Below, piece by piece: positions 1 through 47,407 of a stretch of 64,000 nucleotides of DNA (position 1 is its first letter; each line of letters begins with the position of its first letter). The notes under the pieces were generated by a model. That model did not search any database, was not told the DNA's origin, and worked only from the letters and a program-made list of their open reading frames with translations. Source of the DNA: Eledone cirrhosa. Its lineage: Eukaryota. Both the position numbers and the translations under genes were made by a program. Where the stretch lies: positions 208,630,001 through 208,694,000 of the forward strand of contig OZ024742.1 in NCBI GenBank assembly GCA_964016885.1. The letters are read 5' to 3'.

Positions 1-2590
1 CTCAGATGTTTTGAATTGTCTGACACGTATCGACTAGATTATCCGAATGTGCCAATGTGGAAATGGGCAAACCGCATCGGGTCATGCAGACCGTATTTAA
101 ATAGGGTATTCTGTAAGGAAACAGATAAGGCTAGTGTAGGTTGTCCACATTTTGAAGTAGTCTATTACACGGACCACAAATTTGTGATCTGTGAAGTTGA
201 CTTAAATAGACTCCATAGGCAAGGGCCAGGTTACTGTAAGAGGACGCGTCATTCCCGGCGCACGAAGCTTACAGAGACCGGATTAGCGAATTAGTTAAGT
301 GTGCATTGACGGGTGGGATCGTCAACAACAGGTGGTGGTTTACCTTGAAAAAAGCTATTAAAGTATAATCGATAAGGTTTAGCACAGGAGTAGTGATAGA
401 GGAAAATAGAGTAAAGGGGGAGTTAGTTAGAAAGCTGGAATAGATGTTTAGGACATGCATCGCAACCGACGTGCTTGCGGCGAGATTGGCACTCGACCAA
501 TTCTTCAACGCAAAGCATGAAGGCTACTGTGTCAGAGCTAGAGCGCGTGCTCTAAGACACGAGGGGACGAAAGCCGTTCAATGTCCCCGAGTAGTGGTGT
601 GCGGGGGAGCATTCTGAGAAAGGACTCGAAAAGTGGGACGTTATAGACAACTTCAGGCCTATAACTCTGCTAAAAGCAGAGTTTAAGATTGTGGCCAATG
701 TGTTAGCAAAGAGATTGCCACTTGTCGTCGGTGAACTGGTGGGAGAGGCGCAGACATGCACCATTCCGGACAGATCCATCCACGACAACCTCCATCTCAT
801 GCGATACATCATAGAGAGGGTGGTTAAGGAACCTGGTACGGGTGGGGCCCTGATCAACTTGGATCAATCTAAAGCATTTGATAGGGTCGACCATCGGTAC
901 CTGGCTGCGGTCCTCGAGGCGGCCGTCTTCGGGCCCGTTTGTAGGGGCGACATCTGCTCGATTGTGAGGGTGAATAGTCACCTGTAGCAGTCTTTCAGCA
1001 TCATGCGCTCGGCCCGCCAGGGTTGCCCCTTCTTGTCCCTCTTGTACGTACTGGCTCTGGAACCGTTGCTGCACGAATTGGAAACGATGAGGGGTCTCAC
1101 GCAAACTGGGATGCAGGAGATCCGTGTCAGCTTATGCCGACGACGTCACCGTGGTGGTGCCGAGCAACAAACAGGTACAGATGCTCGGCACCGCTCTCAA
1201 GCAATACGAAGTGGTGACAGATGCAAAAATAAACCAGGAAAAGTCGGTGGGCTTTCAACTTGGCACCTGGAGAGGCAAGTAAGTCCATGTCGTCCGACAG
1301 CGTCATGAGGCGCTGAACCGGTTAAATTGATAGGGTTCTATTTTGGTCCAGACCTCTAGATGGAGAAAAACTGGAGCTAAGTGACGAGCAGGATGTCTCT
1401 CTCACCCAGATATGGGCTGTCTCTGAAAGGTCGGGCGGAGGTGGCGAATGCGTACATAGCGTCCGTCATCTGCTACCGCCTGACCGTCGTACCTTTCCAC
1501 CGCCCAACTCTGACCAAAATGGAGCGCCTCCTCTTCTGCTTTGTGTGGAAGGAACGCGCTCCCATGGACAGACGAATCGTTTGCTGTCAACCTCCGTTGC
1601 GTGGAGGACTAGGTATGCCGTGGCTGATGATGCGCAAACGGTGAACAGGTGTGGTCGCTCACCACCCTCTACCAACTGGGCATTTGTATCGGTAGTACAA
1701 CCCCCTCGGCGTTCTATAGAGGGCTAGTGGAGGGAAAGAGGGACGACGTTCTCGGGGAGACCCTAGACGTTGAAGACGATCAGCTGTTCGCTCTCTTCAA
1801 GAGAACCTTCAGACCGGCGCCTATCGACAACTTCCAGAAATCCCTGGCCTGTCAGCGCTATCGGGGAGCGTTGCCGGTTCGGGATAAGCTCTACGGAAAC
1901 GGAGGTGCTGTCAGCCGAGCCTGTCCAAGATGCGCGAAGGGCGACGAAAGCGTCCTGCACGCACTCGTTCAGTGCCCGAGGATTGCTGACTTGTGGAGCT
2001 ATGTCGAACAGTTGCTGTCGCGTGTAGGACGGATCCGGTTATCGACCGAGTCCATTGTGCAGATAGCCCCGCCATCCTCCTTTAAAGAGGAGGAAGGGTA
2101 GGCAGTTTTCATCTGCCTGGTGGCCATGGCGAAAGAGAATGTGTGGTGGCCAAGTTTGAAAGGGTTGAAGACGCACACTTTCCTGTCTGGCCAATCCCTG
2201 ATTAACTTTTTCAAGTTCCACTTGAAGAGGAAAAACGGGGTGGAGAGGCAAGTGCTGTCTTCTAGTAAGTTTGTTGAAAGGTTGGTGAAAGTGGTCCAAG
2301 TGAACGGAGTATGCGCCTGTAGACTGAAGAGTGGTAAAACTGAGAGAGGGCGTTTGCCCTGATGGTCATGTTGACCGCGGTCTTTTGTGTGGTTTTCACC
2401 ACGAGTGACCCTCGGAGGTTTCCCCCTTTTCGGGGAATTTTTATGGTTTGAATATTTTAATTTCTTTTTACACATTTCCGTCTTATTACATTTTTACACG
2501 GCCAAAATCCACACCGTACCGTCCTGTAGCATCCTGTGCTGTTTGTAATGTTTTTCTTCATGTTAGCCTCTGTGGCCAATAAATGAAATC
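1..2590 (+). mobile_element. L1/Tx1-like LINE, decayed 3' part (end of APE, RT, CCHC, 3' UTR); continues left of the window
   Basis: Frameshifted ORF pieces: APE C-terminus (PYLNRVF...YTDHK), RT (NLDQSKAFDRVDH; RQGCP), CCHC (CPRCAKGDESVLHALVQC). Ends GCCAATAAATGAAATC then (ATT)n. Confidence 0.9.
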
Positions 2591-2608
2591 ATTATTATTA
2601 TTAGTATT

Positions 2609-5600
2609 GTTCTTTGAGTGTCGGTCATTGGTGTTATTTAACTGGAAAGTTTGTTGAAATGAATATCAAGCCACTAACTACAGCCTCAGATATTCAGGAC
2701 GTATCGGAGGATTCTTGCTGTTCCCAGCAAGCATACCTTTTGAAGAGTTCCAAAAAGCGGGGCGGGACCAATTTTTTTTAACCATGCTTGGACACTCTTT
2801 GAGATAGTAGCTAGTGCGCCTATGACTATTGCGAGCTCTTTGACCTCATGGCAGTTCCACATCCTTTTTACCTCCCACTTTAAGTCCTCGTATCGGTTAA
2901 TTTTCTCCCTCTCCTTCTCTTGCACACTCGTATCGAATGGGCAGGCTACATCCACAATCAGGCGCGATCTTTTTCCCTTGTCCAAAACCACCAGGTCAGG
3001 TCTATTGTGTTCCAGTTTCTTGTCCGTCTGTATCCAAAAATTCCACAGCACCTTCACCTGATCGTTTTCCATCACCGACTCTGACTTATGCTCATACCAC
3101 TTCTGAGAATGGGGTAAATTGTTTACTTTGCATAGGTTCCAGTGGTTCATTCGGATACAATGTGAGCCACAGTCTCCTCTCTCTCTCCACAGATCCTACA
3201 CAGTGGGCTAGCCTCCTCCTAGTAAATATGGTGTTTGAGCCACTTCGTTTTGAGGGCCTGCTCTTGCGCAGCCATTCGCATTCCTTCTGTAGCTTTTTCA
3301 TGGTCTCTTCTTTTCAACCAGTTCCATGTCTGTGGATCTCTAAATTCAGTTTTCTCAAAGAAGGTACTATGAAGGGATTTTTCATGAAGGTTGCTCTTTC
3401 TCCTTGTTATTTCCTCCTTGGACATCCCCTGGTCTATTGCATTCTCTTTCAGTACAGTTCCGAGTATTGGCTCCCTACTATCAGTCACGTATTTGTGTAG
3501 ATTGTTTTTCTCCATCTGAACACAGTCCTCTATGCTGATAAAACCTCTTCCACCTTCAGATCTCCTTAAGTAGAGTCTATCGACATTACTCCTCTTGTGG
3601 AACATTTTTTGATATTCAATAGCTTCCTAGTCTTCCTATCCATTTCTATTTATTCAGCAACATTCCATCTCAGAATTCCCGAACTGTACCTAATAATAGA
3701 TACAGCTCGGGAATTTACTGCACTTATGGCATTCCTACTGTTCAGATGTGACTTTAATACGCTCCTGACTCTCCGAATGTATTCAGATCTTATCAATTCC
3801 TTCATTGTTTTGTTCTTGATGTCATCAGGCTCCAGAACACCTAAATACTTGTATCCTTCTTCAGTATCAATTTCCTTTATCATCTCACCTGTTGGTACCT
3901 GGATTCTGTTGCTCTGCTCAATTTAACCCTCCTCATCACTAGGACTCCACACTTATTAATACCAAATTCCATACATATATCATTGCTGAAAATACGGACA
4001 GTGTCAACAAGCACATCCAACTCCTTCCCACTCTTCCCGAAGAGCTTAAGATCGTCCATGAAGAGGAGGTCATTGATGGTAAGCTCTCCCTTTCCCAACT
4101 TGTATCCTGCTCTCACTTTTCGCAGTATAATGGTCAGGGGATCAGGGCAAGGACAAACAACAGAGGGGACAAACTATCTCCCTGGAAGATACCTCTCTTG
4201 ATCTTCACGCCTCCCAAGGATTCTCCGCCCGATGTTAACTCTGTTTTCCAGGACTTCATACTTTTGCTCAACAACTGTCTGGTGTTATCTTCCACCTTGA
4301 AGATCTCTAGACTTTTCGTTATCCAAGAATGAGGTACCATGTCGAATGCATTTTTGTAGTCTATCCATCCCATGGCAAGATCAGTGTGTCTCCTCCTGCA
4401 ATTCCTCATTACCATCTTATCAATAAGTAACTGGTCCTTTGTACCACGGGACTTCTTTCAGCATCCTTTCTGTTCGTCCGGTAACAAGTTGTTTATGTGG
4501 AGGTGATGGTAGATTTCCTCAAACACAATGCTAATTAACAGTTTCCACATTACGGACAGACATGTGAGAGGTCTATAGTTGGTAACATCATTACCCTTGG
4601 TTCGGTCTTTCATTACCAGAACTGTGGTACCTTTTGTCAACCACTCTGGTACCTCACCTGACATCAATCAGTCATTGAGCATGGTTGTCAGTTTCGGTTG
4701 GAGGGATGTTATATTTTTAATCCAATGCCCCTGCACACCAACTGGGCCTCGTGATTTCCAGTTGGTTAGTTTTCTGGCCTGCCATTTAAGAGTTTCAACT
4801 GTGATACTCAAATCAGTTTGTTGGTGTGCCTGTTTACTAATCTCCTTTTGTACTGTCTCAATCCACATTGCCTGATCATTATGTCTAACATCCTGCTCCC
4901 ATATTCCTCTCCAGAATGTCTTAGTTTGTTCCGCCTCAGGGATCAAGTCGTTGCCTCTTTCTTTCCCTTCAAGCTGTCCAAACAACATCTTCTGGTTGTT
5001 GTCAAGCATGCGGTTCTGTCTATACTGACTGACTCTGATCTCGTATCGCCTAATTTTTGCGCTCTTTGTTACAATGCGCCGCTTCATTTCATTTATGATA
5101 ATATTTAGTTTTTCCTCCTAGTTTTGTACTTTATTTCAAGTCTATTTTTAGTGTCTATGTTTTTTAGTGTCCCATTCAGTAGGGACTCAAGCTTTCCAAT
5201 GTCATTTCTCATTTCCCTGATTTGACCATTCAGTCGTTTCTTCGACCAAGGTTCTGATCTTTCTTGTTTGTTGTTTCCTCTCGCTTTTATGCTAATTAAT
5301 TTCCTCACCGCATTTTCTGTTGCTTTGAGAGGATATTGTTGCACTGGTAAAGGTTCCTCGCCTCAAGGTATGGGATGACTTTGTTTACCTTAGCTGTTGT
5401 TGCTTTTAACTTTTTCCTGTCTACAAATCTTAGGTTCATAGGTTTCCCACTATCATTGTTCATTTCATCTACCACTAAGTTTAGGATATCAACCAAATCT
5501 TGTTCTAGCCCGTCAGCATTCATTTCCTCAATGGCAGTATCTTTGTTCCGGGTATTATTTATTTCAGCATTCACATAATTGTCTGCTTCGAATTCTTCCT

Positions 5601-6377
5601 CCGTTCTCTCAACATCTTCACCTTCATTTCCCACTGGCTCTTTTGCCTAGCATACTCCACTCTCCATTTCCAACCTAATCTCTCTGCTCAGTTCCTCCAG
5701 TTCCAGCTGGCAGTTCTTATTACCCGAGCCTGCCCGGCCAATTTCTGTTCATCTAATTTAAATAGACCAATCTCGTTCGAGATGTTATGCATCCGTTTCC
5801 TATAGACTTTTTTCCTTGGGGTTACTCTTCAGGTAACATTGCATAACAGTTCTATTCCATTCTTTCGTCCAGTTGGTTCTGGTCCCTTTCCTTCTTCTTC
5901 TTCTTCTTCTTCTTCTTCTTCTTCTTCTTCTTCTTCTTCTTCTTCTTCTTCTTCTTCTTCTTCCAACACCAGCAGTATTTGGATGACAGCCAGGTCCCTG
6001 CTCCTGAGCCAGGGACCACTTGCCGGGTGAGAGTCTGGCACATGACATTCCAGTCACCACTTCACTGTTATTCGAACTGTTTAGGTTCGACATTTAAACA
6101 CTCATATCGAGGATTGGTGAATGTATGGTTACATAACCACCGGTGATTTCATCACCCCCCGGTGATTTTAGCGTGGCACTATCACGCTGTAGACGAACGT
6201 AAATAAATAAACAAATAAATATATAAAAACTAAAAAAAATAAGCGTAAGTTTCATTGTAATGTAATGTTTGAATGTCTGACTTAGTTTTTTTGTTTGTTT
6301 ATTTGTTTGTTTGATTTTCTTTTCCTTACGTTTTTCGTTACTGCTGTGCTGTTTTGATTTTTGATTTTTATGGTTTT
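2609..6377 (-). mobile_element. R4/Dong-like RLE LINE, family A, decayed copy lacking the distal 5' UTR
   Basis: Minus-strand fragments [42 protein letters not shown]...IVDVACP...EKINRY. No APE domain. Collinear with the copy at 13980-18405; 3' end abuts (ATT)n. Confidence 0.9.
5891..5963. repeat. (CTT)n/(AAG)n microsatellite inside the Dong-A ORF N-terminus
   Basis: About 24 perfect CTT units. Confidence 0.95.
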
Positions 6378-6460
6378 AGCTTCATGAGAAGTAGGGCTGT
6401 TGCGTTCAAAACTTTTGAAATTTGTTTCGACTGGTTGCTTATCATTATTATTATTATCTC

Positions 6461-7090
6461 TGACTTGTGGAGTATGTCGAACAGCTACTGTCGCGTGTGG
6501 AACGAATCCGGCTATCGGCCGAGTCCATAGTGAAGATCGATCCACCGCCTTCCTTAGGTCAGGAAGAGCAGGAAATTTTCCTCTGTCTGGTGGCAGTTGC
6601 GAAAGAGATTATATGGTGGACCAGGTTGAAAGGACTAAAGACAGACACTTTTCTCTTCGGCCAATCCCTCATCAACTTCTTCAAGTTTCACCTGGAAAGG
6701 AAGGTGAGGGTGGAGAGAGAAGTGCTGCTCCCCAGTACATTTGCAAAAAGGTGGGTGAATGTGGCGATAATGACTCGTGTGAATGGGCCTACTCTGACCA
6801 TGCGCCTATAGGCTAGCTAACTTGAGGAGAGGGGTGCTCTCCCTGTGTTCCCTAGAAGCGCAGGGTGGTTCAGGATTGGTGGGGTACCTGAAGCACCCCA
6901 GGGTCGTACACCCCCTATCGGGGAATTTATTTTTTTATATTTATGCATAGTTTATTTTATATTTTTACATTTTCATTGTTAAATTAGTCTTGCCATTGTG
7001 AACTTTTACTCCACCTTATTGTAAACCCCCACTGTCCCTGTCTTTCTATTGTCCCCTACATGTTGGCCCTGGTGGCTAATAAATGAAATC
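6461..7090 (+). mobile_element. 5'-truncated Tx1-like LINE (ORF2 C-terminus + 3' UTR, second UTR type) with target-site duplication
   Basis: ORF 6467-6811 matches the ORF2 C-termini of the other copies. Flanked by ATCATTATTATTATTATCTCT at 6441-6461 and 7088-7108. Confidence 0.9.
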
Positions 7091-7113: not shown

Positions 7114-7721
7114 TCGCCGAGGTTGACTTTTTCTTTCATCCTTACGGGGTCGATAAAATAAAGTACCAGTAATGCACTGAGTAATTGCTGGCCTTGTGCC
7201 TAGAGTAGAAACAATTATTATTATTATCTGGTAATTTCTGGCCTTGTGTCTAAAGTAGAAACAATTATTATTATTATCTGGTAGGGCGGTGGATTGCCAG
7301 TATCGGTAGAGGGTCGGATGCCATGCTTTCCAGCATAGTTACGTCCCTTTACGATCTGAGTTCAAATCCTGCCGAGGTTGACTTTACCTTTCCTCCTTAC
7401 GGGGTCGATAAAATAAAGTACCAGTAATGAACTGGGTAATTGCTGGCCTTGTGCCTAAAGTAGAAACAATTATTATTATCAGGGCGGTGGATTGGCAGTA
7501 TCTGTAGAGGGTCGGACGCCATACTTTGACGCATAGAGTTACGGCGCTTGCTATTCTGAGTTCAAATCCCGCCGAGGTAAATTTTGCCTTTCATCCTTAT
7601 GGGGTCGATAATATAAAGTACCAGTAATGCACTGGTTAATTGCTGGCCTTGTGCCAAAAGTAGAAACAATTATTATTATTATTATCAGCCGAGGTTAACT
7701 TTGCCCTCCATCCCCACGGGG

Positions 7722-7757: not shown

Positions 7758-7763
7758 GTTATT
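7722..7763. repeat. (ATT)n microsatellite
   Basis: Direct reading. Confidence 0.95.
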
Positions 7764-8256
7764 ACTCTTTGAGTCTCAATCATTGATGTTAGTTAACTGG
7801 AAAGTTTGTTGAAATGAATATCAAGCCACTACCTGCAGCCTCAGATATTCAGGACGTATCGGAGGGTTCTTGCTGTTCCCAGCAAGCATGCCTTTTGAAG
7901 CGTTCCAAAAAGTGTGAAGGGGCCAATTTTCTTTAACCATCCCTGGAAACTTTTTGAGATAGTCCCTAGTGCGCCTATGACAATCGGGATCACTTTGACT
8001 TCATGGCAGTTCCAAATCCTTTTTACCTCCCACTTTAAGTCCTGGTATCGGTTAATTTTCTCCCTCTCCTTCTCTTGCACTCTCGTGTCGAATGGGAAAG
8101 CCACATCCACAATCAGGCACGATATTTTTTCTTTGTCCAAAACCACCAGGTCAGGTCTATTGTGTTCCAGTTTCTTGTCCGTCTGTATCCTAAAATCCCA
8201 CAGCACCTTCACCTGATCGTTTTCTATCACCGCATCTGGCTTATGCTCATACAACT
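7764..8256 (-). mobile_element. 5'-truncated Dong-A copy (RLE domain + 3' UTR)
   Basis: ORF 8254-7841 nearly identical to the C-terminus of 15405-14056; (ATT)n on both sides. Confidence 0.9.
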
Positions 8257-8278
8257 TCGCATATTATTATTATTATTA

Positions 8279-11200
8279 CAGTTGCATTTATCTTGCTTTA
8301 TGTTCATACGAGTTATCACCAAGTCACAACCAGTGACCTCAAGAGACAACAAGGTCCGCCATGTTCAAGAAAGAACATACATATTCACACATGCATCTTT
8401 AGTGTTTAGACTTGTGATGTACTTATATTGACAGAATCTTCCTTAGTATATGGGCAGTTCCCATTAGTACTATCTTTTGTGTTTCTCCTATACGCGGGTT
8501 TCCTGGGATTTGCGATATGTAATCATTAGACCCCTTAGGTATCATTCCCAGAGCGCCTACAACCACTGGTATTGTTTTAGTTCTCAATTTCCACATTTTT
8601 CCAATTTCTATCTCCAGGTCCTTATACTTGCTCAATTTTTCAAATGTTTTTATAGATACATTCTTGTCTATTGGAACAGACATATCAATTAGCAGGCATA
8701 CCCTCTTTTGAAAGTCTTTCAATATTATATCAGGTCTGTTTGCATCTATTTTTCGGTCTGTTTGGATGCTAAAGTTCCACAAGATTGAGATGTGATCTTT
8801 TTCAAGTATGGGAGGTGGTTGATCCTCCCACCAATTCTTTTGATGGGGCAGGTCAAAATGCTTACACATTATCCAATGTATGTATTGTGCAGCTCTGTCA
8901 TGCCTGTCTAGGTATTCGGTTGGAGCTATAGGACTGCACATTGAAATTATATGGTCAATGGTCTCTGGTTGTTTTTTGCATACACGGCATAATGGGCTGC
9001 ACCCATTTTTTATTATGTTGGCTTGGTAATTTTTTGTTGGCAGACACTGATCTTGTGCCGATATAATCAGTCCTTCAGTCTCCGATTTCAGTCCAGAGGA
9101 TGCCAACCACTGATGGGTTAAAGTTTTGTCAACATCAGGATTGTTAGCTCGCTCTGGGTATTTTCCATACAGAGGCTTTTCTTGCCATTTCTTAGCCAGT
9201 TTCTGTAGCAGTTCTTTCTTTGCAGTTACTTTTACCTGCTTTGCTTTTTCTGTGTTTTCCATTTCAGCAGTAAATGGGACTTCTAAAATTTGTAGTCCAT
9301 TACTGTATCTTTGTGCAACTTTTGTAATGGAATATGATCTTTTGATGCTTTCGTGTTTCAAAACGAGTTTGATCATCCAATCATGTGATTCCCTTAGATA
9401 TGTAGATAATCCAATTGTTGCAGTTTTCAACGCAATGTCTAACTGGATTAACCCACGTCCTCCTTCTTTCCTAGGGAGATATATTCTATCTATATCTGCT
9501 TTAGGGTGATGCATTCTGTGCATGGTTAAGAATTTTCGAATTTTTGTATCGAGCCTACGGATCTTTGTGCTTGACCAGTTGATGACATTGTAACTGTAGG
9601 TTACTACTGGTATAGCAAGCGTGTTTATGGCATCGATCCTATTCCTTGCATTCAATTCCGTTTTTAAGATTGCTCTCACTCTGCGGTAACATTCCTTCCT
9701 TATCCTTTCCCTCATTGTCGAGTGCTTGATTCCGTCTCCTTCACAAACACCTAGATATTTGTAAGTTTTTTCTTGATCAAGTTCTCTTATCGCGTTCCCC
9801 CGATCAAGATGAATGTCTGAACTCTTCAGCAGCTTTCCTCTGGTGAACGTTGCTTTGGCGCATTTATCTAGTCCAAACTCCATTTTAATGTCATCACTGA
9901 ACTGCTTCACAGTGGATAATAGCCCTTGCAATTGTTCATCATTTTTTGCAAATAGTTTCAGGTCATCCATGTAGAACAGGTGATTAATGGTTTTGTCATA
10001 GACTTTATATCCATGTTTTGTTTCATTGAGCATTTTACTTAATGGTATAAGTGCGATGCAGAATAAAAGCGGTGATAAAGAGTCACCCTGAAACATTCCA
10101 CACTTAATATTAACTTCTCCAGTGATTTTGTTTCACTATTCAAAAGGAGTGTCGTTTTCCATGTCTTCATACTGAATGACAAAAACCTCCTGACAACGGG
10201 GGATACTTTGAAAATCTCTAAACATTTTTCAATCCAACTGTGTGGCAAACTATCAAATGCTTTTTTTATAATCTATCCAAGCAATCGATAGATTTTTGTG
10301 TCTATTATGACAATCTTCCAGTATCATTTTGTTAACCTGAAGCTGATCCTTACAGCCATATGAGCCTCGTTTACACTCTTTCTGCTCAATGGGAAATAGG
10401 TCATTTGTTATCAGGTGGTCATATGTGTATTCAGTTAGGACTGATGTTAAAATTGTATACATTGCGGTCAAGCAAGTTTTCGGTCTGTAATTTTGGGGAT
10501 TGTTTGTCTCATCATTCTTCGGAAGCAGGAATGTAATGCCGTTAACTAGCCATGAAGGTATCTTTTCTGGCTCCTTAACTATTTCATTGTAAAGTTGGGC
10601 TAACAGCTCATGAGACTCTGTGAAGGCATTTATCCAAAAGTTTTGTATTTTGTCTTTTCCTGGGGATTTCCATTTGCTGGTTTTTCTTAGAGCCAAGGGC
10701 AACTGTTCAACTGTTATATTTTCCCATGTTTGTTCCTCAAGGTGAGCTGTATCTTTCATTTGTCTGTCTATCCATGGGGCATGTATGTTATGAACTTTTT
10801 CTTCGGCCCAGATCTTTTCCCAGAATTCTTGCACTTCCTCTTTGGGTGGTAATGATTTAGCAGTTATTGTTGACTTACCAATTTTTCTGTAGAAGTTTCT
10901 TTGGTTGTTTTTGAACATATTATTGTCCTTATAGAATCTAGATCGTTTTTCAAAGCGCATTATACGAGCAGCTTTGGCCGACACTTTTTGCTTGATTATT
11001 TCTATCAGCATGTCTATGTCACATGTTGATTTTATACTGTACTTTTTTTCAATTTTCTAAGTTTAGTTTGTTTAACATGTTCACCTACTTTATAGTTTGT
11101 TAAAATTTCTATGTCAGATCGGAGAAGGTTTATTTGGCGATTGATGTTCTCTTGCCAAGTAGATTTCTTGTGGGAATTCCTTTGTTTTTTCATCTTCACT

Positions 11201-12250
11201 CCACATAAGTGAGTGGTGACTTTAGCCGATGCATAATAGAGATGATTTAAATCAGTAATGTTTAGTTTGTTTGTGATGATAATGTTTTTGAGAATTATGT
11301 TAGTCTTGTGTATTATCTTTTCGTTCTGTTTGGAGTTCTGGATCTTAGGGAGGGTGTCTCGTTGCCCCATGTCAGATTCTTTCATTTTCATCCATTCGAT
11401 CATAATTTCATCCTTCAAGTTGGCAAGTTCATTCTCATTCATTTCTTTATCATTTACGATCTCATTATTTTCATTTGGAGTTTCATCCTGAGCATGCACT
11501 CCCTCCACTTTTTCGATCCTTTCTTTAATTTTTTCTGTTGCCAGTGATTCCGCCCCAACCCTGGGATTCGAAGTGTTACAGTTTACCTCGTTTTCACTGA
11601 CACATGTTTCATTTTCCCTTCGCTGACTTTGTGCTAATAGCTTGATCTGATCAATTTCTATATCAGTTAGTAACTTTTTTCTTACAATATTTCTTCGTAT
11701 ATTGGCTAGTTTGTTGCTGTCAATATAGCCTCTGTTTTCGGGATGTTTCTTTTTCCAGTTGATATATGTCTGTTCTGTATTCGATGTATTTGATGGGTAG
11801 TACATGGCAGTGTAGAAAGCCTCAAGGACTTCTTTATTATCTTCCCTTGACCATTTTTCTCTCTTTTTCTTTGGATTTCTTGGTGGTGAGCATGGAGGGC
11901 CAACAGTAGGAGTATTCCGGTTATGGGGGGGTCTCCAGCTCCGAAGTGATGGGAAGGTTTGAACCATTAGCTGATTTTTCGACCCCAGTCTGGTTCCTCT
12001 CTGAGGGACGCGGCCCTTTTTTACCCGGGTGACGGCCGATCCGGTATGAGATTTTATCATTAGACATTTACTTTATTTCGTCGCGTTTTATCCTTATCCG
12101 CCAAGGGGTAATCATTTCGTGTTACCACTTCTAGAACGAGTGTCAACAAAGACTAGAGGGTTCGTTCTCCCCTAGAGACACGGCTATTCCCCGCCGGCTG
12201 CCATCCCGGTATTTCTTGGTCGCTGGGTTTTCTTTTTGTTGTTTTTTTTT
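8279..12250 (-). mobile_element. R4/Dong-like RLE LINE, family B, near full length
   Basis: Collinear ORF pieces 12060-11032, 11011-10253, 10248-10039 and 10096-8423. Same domain order as family A but highly diverged, with a different UTR. 3' end abuts (ATT)n at 8262-8278. Confidence 0.9.
8423..12067 (-). pseudogene. Frameshifted RT-CCHC-RLE polyprotein of Dong-B
   Basis: [40 protein letters not shown]8-H-X4-C, RHD, RPDII...IDMSVP...EKLSKY (PD-(D/E)xK type). Confidence 0.88.
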
Positions 12251-36038: not shown

Positions 36039-36039
36039 C

Positions 36040-39000
36040 TTCTTTTGCAGGTATAGCCCGAAATATCGAGAGAGTGTTAGTGACAGAGGAGGAGATGGCA
36101 ATCGCAAGGGCCATGGTGACAAGAAGCGCCAATAGAGTCTCCCTGAAACCTCCACCCGATTTTTTCAAGGACCAGCAGCTACGGACGGTGACTTACCGCA
36201 CCGTAAGCAAAATCTCACATCTGGTGGAGAGAGCCGCGGAAGCTCAAATCCAAAAGGCCTTGGGGTGCGTTTGGGCACGCAAAAACCACATCACCAAGAG
36301 GTAAAAGTACGCCACAGTAGACTTACTTTTCTCCACCCCTCAGGAAGCGAAGTCTCACTCTTTGGAAACCCTAAAGAGAGAGGAGATAGTCTTGGTGCCC
36401 TCCTACTGCAGGCAAAAAATAAAAGGTGAGGGTCAAAGTGACGCAGGTCCCACCCGACGTGCCCATACCTTGGCTGGCCGCGTCTGTCCTTGCTGGAATC
36501 AAGGACAGGACGACCATGCTGCAAGTAGAGAAAATAGGGGGAGAGAACTGTTCAGGTATAGGCATGCAAATGCTTACAAACTGACCAGGAACATATCGAC
36601 GCTAACCCCGATATCATAGACATCGAGGAAGGACTCCAACTCCCTATAAACGTAGAAGGAAGACGGCCAAAATGTTATCTTTGTGGGTCGAAGGGTCACC
36701 ACACGGCCTATTGCCCGCAGAAGACAGCGAAGAAGAAGGCCCCTCTCCTTCCAATACCTGTCCATTGCTACCAAGAGCAGGGCAGGCAACAAACGCAGTA
36801 GCCCCTTCCACGGTGAGTATGAGGCAACCTCCGTGGCACCCGTACCAAGGCCACGGACAACTAAAGCAGCAGCATCAGTGGCGGCAACACCAATAGCTAC
36901 ATTTGAAGTAGCTACACCAGCCACAAAATTGCCGAATAGGGCTCCACTACCACCACCAACAGCTGTGGAACACATACCCCTCCCAGACACCACGGAATCT
37001 GACATGGAGTTTGAGGCGGGAGTGAAGTGGCAAACGGTCTGCCATAAAAAAGAAAAAAGAAAAAACCCTTAGATTCAAAAGCGAAGGCACACAAAGAGGG
37101 GTAAAGGCAGCAAGGAAACTTGCAGGAACATCACCATCATCACCATCACCACCACAAGCACCACCGCCAACAACAACTACACCACCACCAGCATCACCAA
37201 AATCACCAACAACGCAAACAAAACAAAACCACACACCAACAGCAACAAGAAGAAAACGGCAACAAAATCACCCCTACCCCTAAAAGTACACAGCCATAAA
37301 CATGGCAAAAAAAGAACTCATACAATATATAAAGCAGCACACAGACATCACAGAAAAAATCTACTACACCCCACCAACACCAAGAACTCTCCCGACAAAC
37401 ATAAGCATCATCGAAATCTCAATAGAACAGTACAAACCTTGAAAACGAAAATTCCCCAACACATTTGGAGACTTCATAGGGTCGGTTACCAAGAGGATAT
37501 ACTCTGACATCCTCTTGGAAACACCCATGACCAGCCAAAGAACGGTTCTACTGTCCCTTCACCATACGATCAAGGTAACTGACCCTTTTTCACTTGCCCC
37601 GTTTCTCATCCAACATGGCCCTACTCAGAATAGGCAGTATAAATGCACGTGGCCTGGGGTCATCTTGGAAGCAGGGTCACCTGCTCAACGACCTCAGGTC
37701 ACTAAACATAGATATGGTGGCCATCAGCGAAACCAGAATCTACGAAGCACAAGCCTTCGCACCGATCTTCGGCGGCTACGATGTATACGCATCTCCCAGC
37801 CGTCTAGGATCGGGGGAGGGGTTGCCGTCCTTTTTCGGAGAAGTTTGGATCTCGCCATACGGGCCATGTTCCTAAGCCCAGAAGGTAAGTCGGAGGTGCT
37901 GGACGTGACTGGCAGCGAAGGCAATGCTTTCAGGCTAGTAGCCGTCTACGCCACAAAAGGGGCAGGACGGCCAGATTTCTTCAGATGTCTAGAGACCTTT
38001 CTTGGAGCGTCCCGCACATTAGTGTTAGTGGGCGACTGGAACGGTATCTTGGATGCACGCTGGGATTGTGTGGGGCCAATGGATAGGGGAGGAGGGTGCA
38101 AGAGCCTCACCAACCTGCACAGACGTTTTGAATTGTCTGACAGGTATCGACTGGATCACCTGTATGTGCCAATGTGGACATGGACAAACCGCATTGAGTC
38201 ATCCAGATCGTATCTCGATAGGGTATTCTGCAGAGAACTAGATAAGGCTAGTATAAGTTGTCCACAATTTAAAATAGTCGACTACACAGACCATCAATTT
38301 GTGATCTGTGAGATCGACATGGACAGACTTCATAGACAAGGGCCCGGTTAGTGGAATCTGAATGCGTCTTTCCCGGAGCTCAAAGACTACAGAGACCGGA
38401 TTAGCGTACTAGTTAAGCGGGCGTTGACGGGAGCGGTCGTCAACAACAGGTGGTGGTTCGCCCTGAAAAGGGCAATTACAGTAGAGTCGATTAGGTTTAG
38501 CAAAGGACTATTGATAGAGGAAAATAGAGTAGAGTGAGAGTTAGTCAGAAAGATAGAAGAGGCGTTTAGGACAGGCATCGCAACCGACGTACTTGCGGCG
38601 AGATTGGCACTCGACCAATTCTTCAAAACAAAACACGAACGCTGCGTTGTCAGAGCTAGCGCACGTGCTCTGAAACACAAGGGGACAAAAGCCGTCCAAT
38701 GCGCCCAGGTGGCAGAGGCGCCACGTGGCAACAAAGCCACAATTCGGTCTTTGTCTGACCAAACCGGGTGCGTGTTGCTCGAACCCAAGCAGATGTGTGA
38801 AGCTTTTCAGCAGCACTTTGCTGAACTGTTCGGGAGCAGCGGCGGCCCGGATCGGGGCATGGACTTCAGTGCTCTCGACGACCGCAGCACAGTGTTACGA
38901 AAAGCCAATAACAGCCGGTCAAATACGGGAAGCGATGGCTAACTGGACGAGGAGTAAATCGCCAGGTTTGGATGCTCTGACTTACGAGCTTTATGCATTT

Positions 39001-41290
39001 ATGCCAGACTTGTTCGGTGACCTCTTGGCAGACTTTTACTGCAACTGGCAGCAGAACGGGAGCATTCCCAGTTTTGTGAGCCGGGAATGGTGGCGCTGCT
39101 GAGAAAAGAGCCGAACAAGGGGGGTGTTGGCGACAATTTCAGGCCCATAACCCTGCTAAACGCAGAGTTCAAGATTTTGGCCAAGGTGTTAGCAACGAGG
39201 TTGGCGCTTGTCGTCAAGGGTCTGGTGGGAGAGGCGCAGACATGCGCCATTCCGGAGAGATCCATACCCGACAACCTTCACCTCATGCGATACATCATAG
39301 ATTGGTTGTATAAGGAACCAGGCACGGGTGGGGCCCTGATCAACTTGGATCAATCCAAAGCATTCGATAGAGTCGATAATCGGTACCTTGCGGCGGTCCT
39401 CGAGGCATCTGGTTTCGGGTCCGTTTTCAGGGGTTGGATCGCTGCGATATACAGCGACATCTGCTCAGTTGTGAGGGTGAACGGTCACCTGTCGCAGCCG
39501 TTCAGAATCATGCGCTCAGTCTGCCAGGGTTATCCCCTCTCGTCCCTCTTGTACATATTGGCTCTCGAGATGTTATTGCACAAACTGAGGGCGATGAGGG
39601 GCGTTCCACGCGAACTAGGATGCGGGAAATCCGAGTCGGCTTACGCCGACGATATCACATTGTTGGTGTCGAGCACCAGACACGTCCAGATTCTCGGCAC
39701 CGCTCTCAAGGAATACGAAGCGGTGACAGGAGCAAAGATAAACCAGGAAAAGTTGGTGGCCTTGCAGCTCGGCACCTGGAGGGGCAAGTCCATGCCGTCC
39801 GACAGCGTCGTGGGGCGTTGGACGGACGGACCAGTTAAATTGATCGGTGTCTGGTTCGGACCGGACCTCCAAATATAGAACAACTGGAACGAGGTGACGA
39901 GCAAGGTGGCCTCCCTCACCCAGAAATAAGCCGAGAGGAAGCTGTCCCTGAAAGGCCGGGCGGAAGTGACGAATGCGTACATCGCATCCGTTATCTGCTA
40001 CCGCCTCACCGTCGTCCTTGCCCCGGCCCAACTCTCACCACAATGGAGCGCCTCATCTTCCGCTTATTGTGGAAGGGATGAGCTCCCATGGTCAGACGAT
40101 CCATCTGCTGTCAATACCCGTTGCGTGTAGGGTTGAGCATGCCATGTCTGATGATGCACAAAAAGCGCTGAGGCTGCGACATCTCTGGTGCTTCCTTGAC
40201 GGTGAACAGGTGTAGTCGCCGTTCGCGAGGCACATTTTCCCACAGCTCGTCTCCTTGACGGAGGTGCAGTCCTGGGTCAGGAAAGGAACGAGAGATAGCA
40301 CTTGAAAACTGTAATGTCTCCAGGCGCTCACTGCCCTCTTCCAGCTGGGCACCAGTATCGGTGGAACATCCATCTCGACGTTCTATAGAGGAGTAGTGGA
40401 GGGGAAGAGCGACGACGTTCTCGGAGAGATCCTGGGCGTCGAAGAAGATTAGCTGTTTGCTCTCTTCCGGAGAACTTTCAGCACAGGGTCTATGGATAAC
40501 TTCCAAAAATCCCTGGACTACGGGGGAGCGCTGCGGGTTCGAGATAAGCTCTACAGGCACGAAAGTGACGTCAACCGAGCCTGTCCGAGATGCGCGCAGA
40601 GCCACGAAACCGTCGTGCACGCACACGTTTAGTGCCCGAGCATTGCTGACTTGTGGAGCTATGTCGAACAGTTGCTGTCGCGTATGGGACTGATCCGGTT
40701 GTCGACTGAGTACATTGTGCAGATGGTCTCGCCGTCTTCCTTTGAGGAGGAAGGGCAGGCGGTTTTCATCTGCCTGGTGGCCATGGCGAAAGGGATCGTG
40801 TGGTGGACAAAGTTAAAAGTGTTAAAGACAGACACTTTCCTCTTCGGCGAATCCCTAATTAACTTTTTCAAGTTTCCCTTGAAGAGGAAAATCAGGGTGG
40901 AGAGGCAAGTGCTGCCTTCTAGCAACTTTGTTGAAAGGTGGGTAAATGTAGGGAGAATGGTCCACTCTGAATATACGCCTGTAGTTTGAGAAATGGAAAA
41001 ATTGAGAGAGAGCGCTTGCCCTGGTGGTCAGGGTGGCCGTGATCTTTTGTGTGGTTTCCGCCACGAGTAACCCTCAGAGGTTTCTCCCCTATTGGGGAAT
41101 TTTTCATTGTTTCAATTTTCATTTTTATTGTTTATATATATATATATGTTTCTATGTCTTTTTTTTCTTTTCTTATATAAATAATTAAAATCTTTACACG
41201 CACAAAACCCACATCGTACCGTCCTGTACCGTCCTGTGCCGTCTATAATGTTTTTCTTGATGTCAGCCCTTGTGGCCAATAAATAAATAA
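36040..41290 (+). mobile_element. Tx1-like LINE, 5'-truncated in ORF1, decayed
   Basis: Knuckle KCYLCGSKGHHTAYC ~36670; ORF2 ATG at 37615 (MALLRIGSINARGL); GDWN, YTDH, YADD; 3' UTR near-identical to 34250-34555; (ATT)n 41290-41355. Confidence 0.92.
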
Positions 41291-41297
41291 TTATTAA

Positions 41298-41355: not shown

Positions 41356-44300
41356 ATTGTAGAAGTATACAGGTCGCAGGAAAATTTTACTCTCCTAAGT
41401 TTGTGATTTTTGAAGTTTTATTGCGAACTTATTGTAAAAATTTGAATTGTTTTGTATTTAAACAAACCCCGTTTCTTTTGAGGTGGTCGGAATTAATCAG
41501 TATTTAGCCCTTCGAGGCTAAATTCCATTTTGAACTTTGCATTTAGCAAATACGCCCCAAAAAGAAAAATGGCATCATTCAAAAAATCTGTTTCTCTACC
41601 CTGTCTCCACACAAAAATTACTCCTTCACCAAGCTATCGTTCTCTACCTTGACTTTCCTCACAACAATTTCTTTGTTCACCAAGCTGTCAGGGTGGTGTC
41701 TAGCTTTCCTTTTCGTCTTCTTCATCGTCACATAGTGAAAGTCAAGCAAAGGCTATTTCATTCTCTTCTTCATCAAACGGTGGTTGAGAAGCGGCTGCTG
41801 CTGATGCATTTGACAACAAAGGAGGTAGCAGCAGCAGTGTCAGTATCAACAATAACACCTGTGGTAGAGGTAGCAGCAGCAGGAGCAACACCAAAAACAC
41901 CGTTTGAAGCAGTAACAACAATAAGAGCACCAACAAAATCACCAGTAACAGCAGAAGCGGCGGCAACAATGATGCCACTGAAAAAGGGACCATCTCTTTT
42001 GCAACGGTGGTTCGCAACTTAGAAACAGTCCTGGTCACAGAGGAGGAGATGGCGATCGCAAGACACGTGGTAACCAGAACTGAAATTTCAGTGTCCTTGA
42101 AACCACAAACCGACTTCCTGGTGGAACAAGTGCGACGCACAGTGACATACTGCACGATTGCCACGAAATTACGTCGTGGAGAGAGCCTCGGAGGCCCAAA
42201 TCCAGAAGGCCTTGGGAACCGTGTGGGCACGGAAAACCCACATCACCTGTGGCAAGAAATATGCTACTGTGGGCGTCCATTTTGCTACCACCCAGGAAGC
42301 AGAATCGTACTCACTGAGGACCCTAAGAAGTGATGACATAACGTTATTCACGTTTTACAGCAGCAAAAAAATTGCAAAGGTCAGAGTATCCCAGGTCCCG
42401 ACCTACGTACCCGTGCCTTGGCTGGTCGTGTCTGTACTTGCGGGCATCGAGAATAGAACAACCATTCTGCAGGTACAGAAGTTTGGGAGAGAGGACTGGT
42501 CGGGTATTGGAATGGAGATACTCAGGCAAATCGACCGGGACTACACCAGCGCTATTCCTGACGTAATATACCTCGGGAAAGGCTCCCAACTTCCCATATC
42601 TGTCGAAGGAAGGCGCCCAAAGTGTTTCAACTGTGCGTTGAAGTATCACCTCAGGGCCTTCTGCCCAAAGAAAATAACAAAGGCGAAGGTCCCCCTCCTT
42701 CAAACGCCGGAACTGCTGCCATCAGAAACAGAGCAGTCAGCGAAAAATTCGGGAGATTCTACAGAGAGTAGGAAGACAACGTCCGTGGCACCCACACCAA
42801 AGCCACGAACAACAGAAACACCGGCGGCTGCTGCAGCAACAGACACAGTTGCAATAGCTGCACCTCTGCCAAGAACGGCAAAGTAGGCTCCACCATCACC
42901 AGCAAAAACAACACCAAAGACAAATGAGAGGGTAGAACTCATACCTCCCCCCGACCTCTCACAGTCGGACATATAGTATGAGGCGGCTGAGGAGTGGAAA
43001 ACGGTTGTCAACAAAAAAAAAACAAAAAAAAACGTAAACACGCCACAATTTGTCCCTCCAAAAACGAAGACAATGAAAGAGGAGTAAAGGCTGCAAGGAG
43101 ACTTGAAGCAACACCAGCACAAGCATCCCCACCAACAACAACCACACCACCACCAGCATCACCACAAACAGCAACATCCCAAACACAAAAAAGCACACAC
43201 ACCCAACAGCAACAACAGAAAGAACATCACCCCCCCCCCCCCCACACACACACACACTCCAACACAAAGAAAAGTTCACAGCCATAAACATTGCACACAA
43301 AGGATTAATGGAACATATAAAACATCACACCGATATTTCAGACTTAAATTACCACACCCCACCAACACCAAGAACATTACCCAAAAACATGACAATTGTC
43401 GAAATTAAACTGGAAGACAATAAACAGTTAAAGCAAAAATTCCCCGACTGCGTTGGAGATTTCAGAGAGTCACGCTCCAAGAGAATCTATACAGATATGA
43501 TCTTGGAGACACCCATGACCAACCGAAGGGGTGGTTCTACTGTCCCTTCCCGACACGATCAGGGTAGGTGATCCTTTCTCACTTACCAGTTCCTCACCAA
43601 TGTAAATGTACGTGGCCTGGGATCATCTTGGTAGCAGGGTCATCTGCTCAACAACCTCAGGGCACTAAATATAGATGTGGTGGCCATCAGTGAGACCAGA
43701 ATCTCTGAAGCACGCGTCTTCGCACCGATCTTCGGCGGCTACGATGTAGACGCCTCTCCCAGCCGTCCGAGATCGGGGGGTGGAGTTGCTGTGCTTTTTC
43801 GGAGAGGCTTGGATCTCGCCTTACGGTCCATCTTCCTTGACACAGAAGGTAAGTTGGTGGTGCTGGACGTGACTGGCAGCGAAGGCAATGCTTTCAGTCT
43901 AGTAGCCGTTACGCCCCAACAGAGGCAGGACGGCCAGATTTCTTCAGACGTCTAGAGACCTTTCTTGAAATGTCTCGCTCTTTAGTGTTAGTGGGCGACT
44001 GGAACGGTATCTTAGATGCACGCTGGGAATATGTGGGGATAGTAGACGGGGGAAGAGGGTGTAAAAGCCTCAAAAACCTGCTCAAACGTTTTCAACTGTC
44101 TAACAGCTATAAACTGGATTATCTGAATGTGCCAATGTGGACATGGGCAAACCGCAACGGGTCATCCAGGCCGTATTTAGATAGGGTATTCTGTAGGGAA
44201 ACACATGAGGCTAGTGTAGGTTATCCCCAATTTAAAGTAGTTGACTACACGGATTACAAATGTGTGATCTCTGAAGTTGATTTAGGTAGACTCCATAGGC

Positions 44301-46847
44301 AAGGGCCCGGTTACTGGAAGCTGAAAGCGTCATTCCTGGCGCGCAAGGCTTATAGAGTAGAGGGAGAGCTAGTTAGAATAGAAGAGGCTTTTAGTACAGG
44401 CATCGCAATCGACGTGCTTGCGGCAAGATTGGCACTCGAACAATTCTTTAACGCAAAGCATGAAGGCTGCGTTGTCAGAGTTAGAGCATGCTCTATGCAC
44501 GATGGGACGAAAGCAACTTAATTGGCCCGGGTGGTGGAGACTCGACGTGGAAACAAGTCCACAATTCGGTCTTTGCCTGAACCCGAGCAGATGTGTGCGG
44601 TTTTTCAACAGCACTTTGCTCAATTGATCGGGAGCGGCTATCTCTTGGCAGATGTCTACTGCAACTGGCAGCATAACGGTAGAATTCCCAGGTTTGAATT
44701 CCCAGCTTAGAAAAGACCCAAATAAGGGGAACGTTATAGCCAAATTCAGGCCCATAACACTGCTGAATGCAGGGTTCAATATTTTGGCCTAGGTGTTAGC
44801 AAAGAGATTGTCGTCGGTGATCTGGTGGGAGAGGTGCAGACATGCGCCATTCCGGACAGATCCATCCACGATAACCTCCATCTCATGCGATACATCATAG
44901 AGAGGGTGGCTAAGGAACCTGACACGGGTGAGGCCCTGATCAACTGGGATCAATCCAAAGTATTCGATAGGATCGACCATTGTTACCTGGTGGCGGTCCT
45001 CAAGACAGTGGTTTCGGGGCCGTTTTCAGGGGTTGGATCGCTGCGATGTACAGCGACATCTGTTCAGTTATGAGGGTGAACGGTCATTTGTCGCAGCCGT
45101 TCAGCATCATGCGCTCGGTCCGCCAGGGTTGTCCTCTTTCGTCCCTCTTGTACGTATTGGCTCTCGAGCCGTTACTGCACAAACAGGGGGGCGATGAAGG
45201 GCGTCCCACGCGAACTAGGACGCGGAAAATCCCTTCGGCTGACGCCGACGACATAACCATGGTGGAGTGGTGCACCAGACACATTCAGATGCTCGGCACC
45301 ACTCCCAAGCAATACGAAGCGGTGACAGGACCAAAGATAAACCAGGAAAAGTCGGTGGGTTTGCAGCATGGCACCTAGAGAGGCAAGTCCATGCCTCCGA
45401 CAGCGTCGTGGGGCGTTGGACGGGCGGACCGGTTAAATTGCTCGGGGTCTGGTGCAGACCGGACCTCCAGATGGAGAACAACTGGGGTGAGGTGTCGATC
45501 AGTGTGGCCTCCCTCACCCAGAAATGGGCCGAGAGGAAGCTGTCCCTGAAAGGCCGTGCAGAGGTGGCATCCGTCATCTGCTACCGCCTCATCGTCCTTC
45601 CTTGCCCCGGCCCAACTCTCACCAAAATGGAGCGCCTCCTCTTCCGCTTTTTGTGGAAGGGACGCGCTCCCATGGTCAGACGATCCATCTGCTATCAACA
45701 CCCGTTGCGTGGAGGACTGGGCATGCCATGGCTGATGATGCGCAAACACGCGCTGAGGCTGCGACATCTCTGGTGCTTCCTTGATGGTGAACAGGTGTGG
45801 TCGCCGTTCGCGAGACACGTTTTCCCACAGCTCGTCTCCTTGACGGAGCTTCAGTCCTGGGTCAGGAAAAGACCGAGAGCTAGCGCTTGGAAACTGGAAT
45901 GTCTCCTGGCGCTCACCACCCTCTGCCAAGTAGGCTCCAGTATCGGTGGAACATCCATCTCGACGTTCTATAGAGAACTATTGGAGGGGAAGACCGTCGA
46001 CGTTCTCAGGGGGATCCTGGGCGTCGAAGAAAATCAGCTATTTGCTCTCTACCGGAGAACTTTCATCCCAGGATGGTATAACTTCCAAAAATCCCAGGCA
46101 TGGCAGTGCAACCGAGGAACATTGTCGGTTCGAGATAGGCTCTACAGGCACGGAAGTGCCGTCAGCCGAGCCTGTCCGAGATGCGCGCAGAGCGACGAAA
46201 CGATCGTGCACGCACTCGTTCAGTGCCTTAGCATTGCTGACTTGTGGAGCTATGTTGAACAGTTGCTGTCGCGTGTAGGACTGATCCGGTTATCGACTGA
46301 GTCCATTGTACAGATGGTCTTGCCGTCTTCCTTCGAGGTGGAAGGGCAGGCAGATTTCATCTGCCCTGTGGCCATGCGAAAAAGATTGTGTGGTGGACAA
46401 GGTGGAAAGGGTTGAAGAAGGACACTTTCCTCTTCGGCGAATCCCTAATTAACTTTTTCAAGTTTCAATTGAAGAGGAAAATCAGGGTGGAGAGGCAAGT
46501 GCTGTCTTCTAGTAAGTTTGTTGAAAGGTGGGTGAAAGTGACGAGTCTATTCCGAGTGAACGAGCTCGCTCTGAGTATGCGCCTGTAGCCTGAGGAGTGG
46601 GAAAACTGAGAGAGGGCGCTTGCCCTGGTGATCAGGGTGGCTGTGGTCTTTTGTGTGGTTCTTGCCACGAGTGACCCTCGGAGGCTTCCCCCTTTTCGGG
46701 GAATTTTTGTTTTTGAATTTTTTTGATATTTCTATCTTTTTATAACCTTTTTACACGACCAAAACCTACTTTGTATCTTCCTGTACCGATCTGTGCCGTC
46801 TGTAATGTTTTTCTTCATGTTAGCCCTTGTGGCCAATAAAGAAACCA
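41356..46847 (+). mobile_element. Tx1-like LINE, full span with internal deletions, head-to-tail with the previous copy
   Basis: ORF1 knuckle KCFNCALKYHLRAFC; APE GDWN; RT motifs; CPRCAQSDETIVHALVQC; ends GGCCAATAAAGAAACC(ATT)n. Confidence 0.92.
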
Positions 46848-46857: not shown

Positions 46858-47363
46858 GGCGGTGAATTGACAGTATCGGTAGAGGGTGGGACGTCATGCT
46901 TTGCACCCTACAGTTACTGCCCTTTATGATCTGGTTTCGAATTCCGCCGAGGTTGCCTTTGCCTCTCATTCTTGCGGGGTCGATGAAAGAAAGTACCCGT
47001 CACGCACCGGGGACGATATAATCTGCTTTCCCCTCCCCCTAAACTGCTGGCCTTGTGCCTATATAAGAAACCATTATTATTTGTATTACTTGGCCAGCAA
47101 TTCCCCCCTCCCCAACTTCAGTATTGCACTGGTGTAACTGATGGCCTTGTGCAAAAGTATAAACAATTATTACTATTATTGTGGATTGGCAGTATTGGTA
47201 GAGGGTCGCACGCCATGCTTTGACGCATAGAGTTACGGCCCTTGCCATTCTGAGTTCAAATCCCACCTAGGTTGACTTTGCCTTTCATCCTTACGGGTGT
47301 CGATAAAATAAAGTACCAGTAATGCACTGGGTAATTGCTGGCCTTGTGCCTAAAGTAGAAACA

Positions 47364-47407
<44 letters not shown>
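46858..47407 (+). mobile_element. SINE cluster (long variant ~46858-47080, fragment, short variant ~47180-47407)
   Basis: A/B-box-like motifs, core, shared 3' end, (ATT)n tails. Confidence 0.85.

Follow-up and report, generated by a model that had tools for sequence, protein, structure and literature searches.

The window analysed in this study, a stretch of 64,000 nucleotides of the Eledone cirrhosa genome (assembly GCA_964016885.1, contig OZ024742.1, positions 208,630,001 to 208,694,000; locus G000:C3:208630001-208694000 of a 3.0-Gb genome), harbors a chain of retroelements joined to one another by runs of the trinucleotide ATT. We consider it probable that two independent lineages of long interspersed nuclear elements (LINEs), one Tx1-like and the other Dong/R4-like, insert repeatedly into a single ATT/AAT repeat from opposite strands, and that a short interspersed nuclear element (SINE) likely rides on one of them. 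In sense orientation, Tx1-like copies and the SINE run into ATT and Dong runs into AAT, ATT being present at both ends. Window copies were located by self-BLAST, Pfam and a library of copies from outside the window. Tx1-like and Dong-like DNA together account for roughly 80% of the sequence from 1 to 47.4 kb, compared with 1.2% and 1.3% of bases, respectively (and 2.3% for the SINE), in a background sample of 800 kb composed of 80 stretches of 10 kb evenly stepped through the genome, and the window is, therefore, a dense example and not a product of chance. The chain continues for approximately 5 kb to the left of the window (locus L100).

The targeting of ATT by both LINE types is real and genome-wide. 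The genome was searched with the 5' heads of three Tx1-like subfamilies and of Dong, as well as with two Tx1-like 3' ends, yielding 1,075 to 1,833 candidates per search (115 for the third head), of which the best 30 to 40 were read. When heads were scored for an ATT- or AAT-phase hexamer within 12 nt upstream (background, 1.4%), ATT preceded the full-length Tx1-like heads in 28/29, 24/28 and 24/29 cases for the three subfamilies (76/86 overall) and the AAT phase in 0/86; Dong heads were preceded by AAT in 20/29 cases and by ATT in 1/29. Among copies chosen by their 3' end, which are mostly truncated and were scored by an 18-nt rule, 5' ATT was present in 22/39 and 17/32 Tx1-like copies and 5' AAT in 25/36 Dong copies (background, 2.4%). 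The repeat adjoined 68 of 73 Tx1-like and 53 of 54 Dong 3' ends. A fourth family, a LINE which we take from its motifs to be CR1-like, served as a tail-only control and displayed ATT at none of 17 visible 5' ends. The 5' enrichment and the contrast with the CR1-like LINE indicate that ATT is the target of the Tx1-like and Dong elements and not merely their tail, and the enrichment at 5' flanks anticipated in a preliminary description of this DNA is thus borne out across the genome.

Left out of these counts were, in every set, the copy from the window itself, together with locus L237 (a duplicate of L236), one of a pair of inverted-duplicate copies in L076, seven Dong 5' ends with unusable chaining and any copy that extended beyond its locus; 21 of 30 Tx3-type and 3 of 20 CR1-like copies, whose 5' end was out of view, were likewise excluded. 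Most copies returned by the genome search with a Dong 3' query were old, a bias that probably stems from the skipping of common words.

The relative orientation of the elements is equally constant. With neighbors classified by BLAST, 130 of 134 member-to-member junctions, from sets that overlap slightly, exhibited the predicted polarity, in which Tx1-like copies and SINEs point one way and Dong copies the other, so that the fixed as opposed to random orientation proposed earlier holds. Upstream of the 86 Tx1-like heads were found 32 SINEs and 22 Tx1-like copies in the same sense, 12 reversed Dong copies, one reversed SINE and 19 other sequences; the 29 Dong heads were preceded by 22 predicted neighbors, two reversed Dong pieces and five other sequences. 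Downstream of the Tx1-like tails (39 + 29), the neighbor was as predicted in 27 + 15 cases, other in 25 and of opposite label in one, the last of these representing a 37-bp inversion within a reversed Dong end. Solitary SINEs occur on both strands of the window, which implies that the orientation of an element is tied to its local run and is not constant across the window.

Insertions, as previously surmised, also pile onto earlier insertions. Another member adjoins, in the predicted sense, 66/86 Tx1-like and 22/29 Dong heads. For the first two Tx1-like head sets the proportion is 47/57, as opposed to 19/58 background (ATT)4+ runs (Fisher p 7e-8), and for the third it is 19/29. Among the 80 evenly spaced stretches, young Tx1-like copies were present in four, young Dong copies in five and both in three (p 5e-4). 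The nearest-copy identity of adjacent members ranges from about 81% to 99.5%, the low values possibly reflecting thin sampling in part, and the age of a SINE does not track that of the adjoining head (Spearman 0.04, n = 8; identity pairs of, e.g., 88/97, 95/89 and 93/85 on 185-nt heads, 600-nt head ages having been inflated by low-complexity DNA). Because neighbors differ in age and SINE age does not follow that of the adjoining head, we conclude that the chains grew stepwise. The youngest Dong family A copy of the window (13940-18441 with its flanks) shares 99.3 to 99.5% identity with copies elsewhere, and its 99.5% identity to the copy in L085, on another contig, indicates that this family was active very recently.

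It is conceivable, though improbable, that the families share a target without any self-seeding, each independently hitting pre-existing long ATT microsatellites, with the chains surviving because only inert regions tolerate long inserts. Such a scenario would accommodate the upstream member already present at 19 of 58 background (ATT)4+ runs, the long runs before heads (4 to 25 units in the first Tx1-like subfamily) and the wide spread of solitary SINEs. However, target site duplications (TSDs) by their very sequence turn one site into two, the chain members are of many ages, and the runs between them may be as short as 3 to 4 units.

The Tx1-like frames match Pfam Exo_endo_phos, RVT_1 and zf-RVT, i.e., an apurinic/apyrimidinic-type endonuclease (APE) followed by a reverse transcriptase (RT) and a cysteine-rich end. 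The best solved-structure match of the second open reading frame (ORF2) is human L1 ORF2 (E 2e-30), with which the catalytic E/Y/D/D/H positions align, and the nearest named relative of the protein, at 69% identity, is from Argonauta hians. An ORF1 with a CCHC zinc knuckle is characteristic of the Tx1 clade; a CX2CX4HX4C pattern was noted by eye near 30010-30055, the scanned ORF1 frame being without Pfam support. The Dong frames specify an RT followed by a CCHC motif and a PD-x-D...K nuclease motif within a PD-(D/E)xK-type C terminus, have no APE match in the Pfam scan and find their best solved matches among R2 proteins. In an RT tree of 35 rows (L096 absent), the two lineages are deeply separate: the window Tx1-like copies join Argonauta at 100/100 within a 96/92 group that holds Oryzias and Branchiostoma elements and stands apart from plant L1, RTE and Dong, while Dong families A and B group together at 100/100. 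Named Tx1L, Keno, Kibi, Koshi, Dong and R4 references are not among these rows, and homolog, cluster and Atlas searches returned no named Tx1 relative; assignment to the Tx1 and Dong/R4 clades is, therefore, presumptive, being based on architecture and target. Three Tx1-like copies (L072, L079 and L082) and the window copy at 28627-34556 are mosaics, in which the head of one subfamily is combined with the 3' part of another; their breakpoints differ between copies, consistent with template switching or recombination.

The third chain member, a noncoding SINE of about 190 bp, is represented by 91 tails in the 800-kb sample. Box-like motifs were discerned by eye against the general consensus, and an Rfam search with the SINE returned no tRNA match. 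TSDs of 11 to 24 bp (mode, 17) flank 29 of 50 full copies, compared with 3 of 244 mismatched control pairs, and the insertion site is Y^ATTAT(T) (logo of 26 sites). As the duplication usually begins directly after the last SINE base, where the median ATT run is two units, the SINE duplicates a short site and adds no long tail. The earlier proposal that SINE tails seed new sites accordingly finds no support in that form, since the SINE contributes almost no ATT and can seed only by duplication.

Over its last ~25 nt, the SINE resembles the Tx1-like 3' end: a CTTGT loop within a pairing stem is followed by 12 to 13 nt containing an AGAAA-like motif and then by ATT. The stem sequence is flipped between the SINE (TGGC/GCCA) and the Tx1-like subfamilies (GCC/GGC, AACC/GGTT and GGCC/GGCT) with pairing retained. 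Of 71 matches to the hairpin motif in the 800 kb, 64 are SINE ends, 5 are Tx1-like ends and 2 are other sequences; the motif was absent from the RTE, CR1-like and Dong ends examined. The common hairpin, the equal spacing to ATT and the use of the same strand suggest that the SINE is likely the partner of the Tx1-like LINE, so that the elements are probably not the three unrelated retroelements first described. RTE and CR1 were considered as SINE partners and rejected, as their 3' ends do not match. In L073 (oriented positions 1870-2048), a SINE has inserted into a Tx1-like ORF1 where two ATT units stood; 3 bp were lost and nothing was duplicated, leaving a readable empty site.

The CR1-like LINE is abundant and young (2128 candidates; 98% copies; L351-L370, L120, L151, L186, L205 and L318). 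It possesses a 3' hairpin of its own and ends in (ATT)n, mostly of 2 to 10 units, and no ATT-starting duplication was observed among the 17 copies with a visible 5' end. New-looking tails, which lack a matching 5' run, belong to this LINE, and such tails are reused: a SINE directly follows 2 of 20, and a Tx1-like head or Dong end follows others (L186, L205 and L318). The CR1-like LINE is, therefore, likely a source of new ATT targets.

Mobilization of the SINE by another LINE (CR1, RTE or one that was not sampled), with its likeness to the Tx1-like tail being due to chance or an old relic, is regarded as unlikely. The common stretch is short, CR1 is abundant and likewise ends in (ATT)n, and CR1 partners bivalve SINEs (PMC11481361, PMC4824008). 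Against such a driver, the CR1-like LINE exhibits neither 5' ATT nor an ATT-starting TSD (0/17), whereas the SINE has such TSDs, and the hairpin is lacking from CR1 and RTE ends.

The mechanism proposed for the two lineages and the SINE is founded on target-primed reverse transcription and on the known preference of the L1 endonuclease for nicking at T/A. The APE domain of the Tx1-like element would nick the A-rich strand at a T/purine step, 5'-ATAAT/R-3', and the AUU end of its RNA would pair with the freed 3' end. The restriction-like endonuclease (RLE) domain of Dong would nick the T-rich strand, with the end of the Dong RNA pairing with the 3' end released there. These specificities are predicted from sequence. 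Polarity would thereby be set by the strand that is nicked, and the opposite orientation of the Tx1-like and Dong families would require no interaction between them. The Tx1-like RT is presumed to recognize the terminal hairpin (a CUUGU loop and 12 to 13 nt ending in an AGAAA-like motif), which the SINE would have copied. Each TSD would convert one ATT run into two, such that occupied sites attract further insertions, the first seeds being CR1-like tails and ordinary microsatellites; stacking may be augmented by survival bias and by template jumps. Junctions that lack ATT could arise through deletion of the 5' target or through later deletion. With some reserve, we incline to the broader view that one large octopus SINE expansion among several is driven by an ATT-targeting Tx1-like LINE via the common 3' hairpin, and that Tx1-like and Dong elements, by nicking opposite strands, multiply each other's targets while CR1 tails provide seeds, amounting to a four-family feedback that builds polarized arrays of tens of kilobases.

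ATT-less junctions comprise about 30 to 45% of the sets of mostly truncated copies and, in the window, those at 12942 and 36034. By our own reading of junctions, a Dong 5' end is the neighbor at 8/22 junctions with ATT versus 5/17 without, and this similar frequency fits plain deletion. Head-to-head fusions without ATT between Dong and a Tx1-like copy or SINE were encountered at window positions 12942 and 61408 and in L065, L067, L073, L086, L090, L096, L113 and L149, some of them carrying short microhomology. The notion that such Dong and Tx1-like fusions are joint insertions from both nicks found no support, the ages being indecisive. In addition, a common element terminates in an inverted repeat whose AT-rich center is abutted by Tx1-like and SINE copies in L061, L070, L079, L123, L130, L135, L158 and L167.

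Several observations weigh against the proposed reading. The sets of heads and tails consist of the top BLAST matches to the window copies rather than of copies drawn at random, and they overlap slightly. Clear Tx1-like TSDs starting in ATT were found in only three nonrepeat contexts (window copy 2, L071 and, by eye, L256), and no TSD was apparent in six of nine Tx3-type copies with both ends visible. Four junctions carry the opposite label (L234, L276, L277 and L062), and the excess of neighbors might stem from long inserts persisting in inert regions or from long runs being preferred. No empty allele was detected among four read sets over 13400-19100, nor did any read-derived joint skip the young Dong copy located there, in data whose signal was swamped by repeats. 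With regard to the SINE, the stretch in common with the Tx1-like end spans just ~25 nt, with no likeness further upstream; the 40-nt tail folds weakly (-4 to -9 kcal/mol), one SINE variant folding otherwise; and (ATT)3 lies 5' of only 9 of 50 solitary SINEs versus most Tx1-like heads, a difference which is unexplained if one enzyme serves both.

Template jumping, in which the RT passes from one RNA to another hairpin-bearing RNA and the 5' ATT of same-sense stacks is the tail of the second RNA, is judged very unlikely as the general explanation. A SINE or Tx1-like 3' end does precede 54 of 86 Tx1-like heads, both RNAs bear the hairpin, and subfamily mosaics exist (window copy 5, L072, L079 and L082), but jumping cannot yield the 12 cases of a head facing a reversed Dong copy or the ATT runs that abut DNA without a library match, and the age of the SINE does not follow that of the adjoining head. 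That ATT is merely a tail, or the array an assembly artifact, is scarcely credible: although short-read contigs failed to span the array, the same pattern recurs in divergent copies on many contigs, at well over 100 loci in all, the CR1 contrast speaks against it, and the 5' junction counts refute it.

Each part of the arrangement has a precedent (Dong at TAA, Kibi and Koshi, TRAS and SART, and SINEU), and the combination was not found in print. R1 (APE) and R2 (RLE) both occupy 28S ribosomal DNA and thus likewise bring APE and RLE elements to one repeated locus, but they use distinct sites within the gene, and their insertion does not multiply the target, unlike at the microsatellite described here. 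TRAS and SART are both APE-type elements of the R1 clade. In Bombyx mori, these two LINE families enter the simple repeat TTAGG from opposite directions; two to three units are enough, and pairing of the RNA with the nicked target has been proposed (PMC7265360); their repeat is telomeric, whereas that of Eledone is dispersed, is used by APE and RLE nucleases and involves a SINE. Dong, of the R4 clade, targets TAA (PMC3812793, PMC3774820), and the present elements resemble it in their RT, CCHC motif, PD-(D/E)xK-type C terminus and AAT runs at both ends (3' ends, 53/54; 5' ends, 25/36 and 20/29), but differ in that two families, A and B, have their target in common with an APE lineage. A 5' hepatitis delta virus-like ribozyme has been reported for the B. 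mori Dong (PMC3774820).

Microsatellite-targeting Tx1-type APE LINEs with T-rich targets include Kibi, (TC)n, Koshi, (TTC)n, and crocodilian families, (TTCC)n/(TTTC)n, and (ATT)n is not among the targets listed; the source sets a target preference at more than 20% of flanks (PMC4494074), and 76 of 86 heads display it here. Junction ATT runs grade into (CTT)n, the repeat phase of the Koshi target, in L069, L246, L285 and L291. SINEU, mobilized by Tx1-Mar, similarly has a target preference in common with Tx1 families and forms tandem copies that sandwich a TSD, but carries poly(A), no LINE with the SINEU-1 3' end having been found (PMC4494074), whereas the present SINE has the terminal hairpin of the LINE. 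Stringent SINE/LINE pairs, e.g., those of the monocot L1 ME1 lineage, show the same conserved loop, compensatory stem and conserved 3' flank (PMC3747384), the difference being that here the LINE is Tx1-like and its end ATT rather than poly(A). The octopus SINEs OK, OR1 and OR2 are named in PMC4824008 and PMC4758252. A word search of the available main text of PMC3531059, PMC4824008, PMC5786205 and PMC11481361 returned no mention of Tx1; the available text of PMC3747384 and PMC4758252 mentions Tx1 and, a table of 58 pairs aside, names no tail-sharing pair. In the open literature, we found no ATT-targeting Tx1-like lineage, no tail-sharing SINE partner of Tx1 and no case of APE and RLE elements on one dispersed microsatellite, although Repbase Reports, Dfam or supplements may already name these families or the sites they target.

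The repeat mix of the window fits published octopus annotations (PMC8967140, PMC13282606). The genome of Octopus vulgaris is 11.6% SINEs and 12.9% LINEs; its recently active families include Dong-R4 and L1-Tx1, and transposable element hotspots have been reported in it without a mechanism (PMC13282606). ATT chains offer a testable cause for such hotspots, and the four-family feedback, if true, could explain LINE hotspots. A likely driver is also named for a SINE whose copy number, extrapolated roughly from the 91 tails in 0.8 Mb, is in the region of 340,000, and two unrelated nucleases would appear to read both strands of one 3-bp repeat. In these genomes, moreover, neither ATT microsatellite markers nor repeat annotation is independent of retroelements.

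Within the window (Table 1), the preliminary description holds in most respects. All seven plus-strand APE/RT copies had been stated to run into (ATT)n; six do, and copy 4 has a single ATT before a SINE stub. Five of the six visible 5' ends follow ATT as claimed (6460, 13023, 23637, 28627 and 41359), and the exception, formerly placed at 36040, is real and lies at 36034. The six minus-strand Dong-like 3' ends do abut ATT (2603, 7758, 8278, 13802, 13976 and 34602), and Tx1-like/Dong junctions of the tail-to-tail kind do occur at ~2600, ~13770 and ~34580. At the SINE-to-Dong junction described at ~7740, what precedes the (ATT)12 at 7722 is a fragment from inside a SINE and not a SINE tail. The plus-strand Dong copy is indeed located near (AAT)n, but it starts near 61408 rather than 61565 and is fused to the SINE stub which the (AAT)n abuts; nor is it the single such copy, given the older relic further upstream.

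Table 1. Retroelement features of the 64,000-nucleotide window
Feature	Position	Strand	Remarks
Tx1-like copy 1	1..2590	+	old, ~81% to nearest fetched copies; extends past left edge
(ATT)4	2591..2602	+	tail-to-tail Tx1-like/Dong junction
Dong/R4-like family A	2603..6443	-	ATT runs flank both ends
Tx1-like copy 2	6460..7090	+	5'-truncated; 18-21 bp duplication starting in ATT, 6444-6461/7091-7108
SINE copies and fragments in chain	7115..7721	+	(ATT)3-5 between them
Dong family A 3' fragment	7758..8261	-	(ATT)12 on one side, (ATT)5 on the other
Dong family B	8278..12941	-	near full length; RT, CCHC, RLE motif
SINE 3' half	12943-13013		fused without ATT to 5' end of Dong family B (8278..12941)
Tx1-like copy 3	13023..13745	+	5'-truncated; preceded by (ATT)3
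Dong family A 3' stub	13802..13939	-	ATT runs on either side
Dong family A, youngest copy	13976..18405	-	flanked by (ATT)12 twice; two frames with RT and RLE
Solitary SINEs	20584; 21930; 22213; 35846	+; -; -; -	
Tx1-like copy 4	23637..28557	+	5'-truncated; (ATT)3 upstream; single ATT at 3' end
SINE 3' stub and (ATT)7	28559..28626	+	
Tx1-like copy 5	28627..34556	+	full-length head; two-subfamily mosaic, switch near 33200-33430
Dong family A 3' stub	34602..34746	-	(ATT)15 and (ATT)13 at its sides
5' stub, further Tx1-like subfamily	34806..35000	+	after (ATT)13; eighth Tx1-type insert
Tx1-like copy 6	36034..41292	+	head lost; adjoins minus-strand SINE without ATT; 3' end approximate (~41292)
Tx1-like copy 7	41359..46846	+	full-length head; (ATT)18-20 run upstream
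SINE chain	46858..47405	+	(ATT)14 at its end
Older Dong-like relic	57920-58609	+	66%
Second chain, mirror image	61307..64000	+	(AAT)n, minus-strand SINE tail stub 61394-61415, Dong from ~61408

The DNA around the start of copy 4 (23637) is AT-rich and has no library match. The stub at 34806 was considered as the lost head of copy 6 and ruled out, as it belongs to a different subfamily. Approximately 1 kb of other DNA (35000-36033) separates this stub from copy 6, which suggests a deletion or rearrangement within the chain. A (CTT)24 expansion is located at 5891-5963, inside the Dong copy at 2603-6443. Outside the chains, an inverted duplication of ~280 bp with an extra 225-bp direct copy occupies 20805-21619, and about four tandem units, each of roughly 1 kb with a 37-bp minisatellite, occupy 52412-56257.

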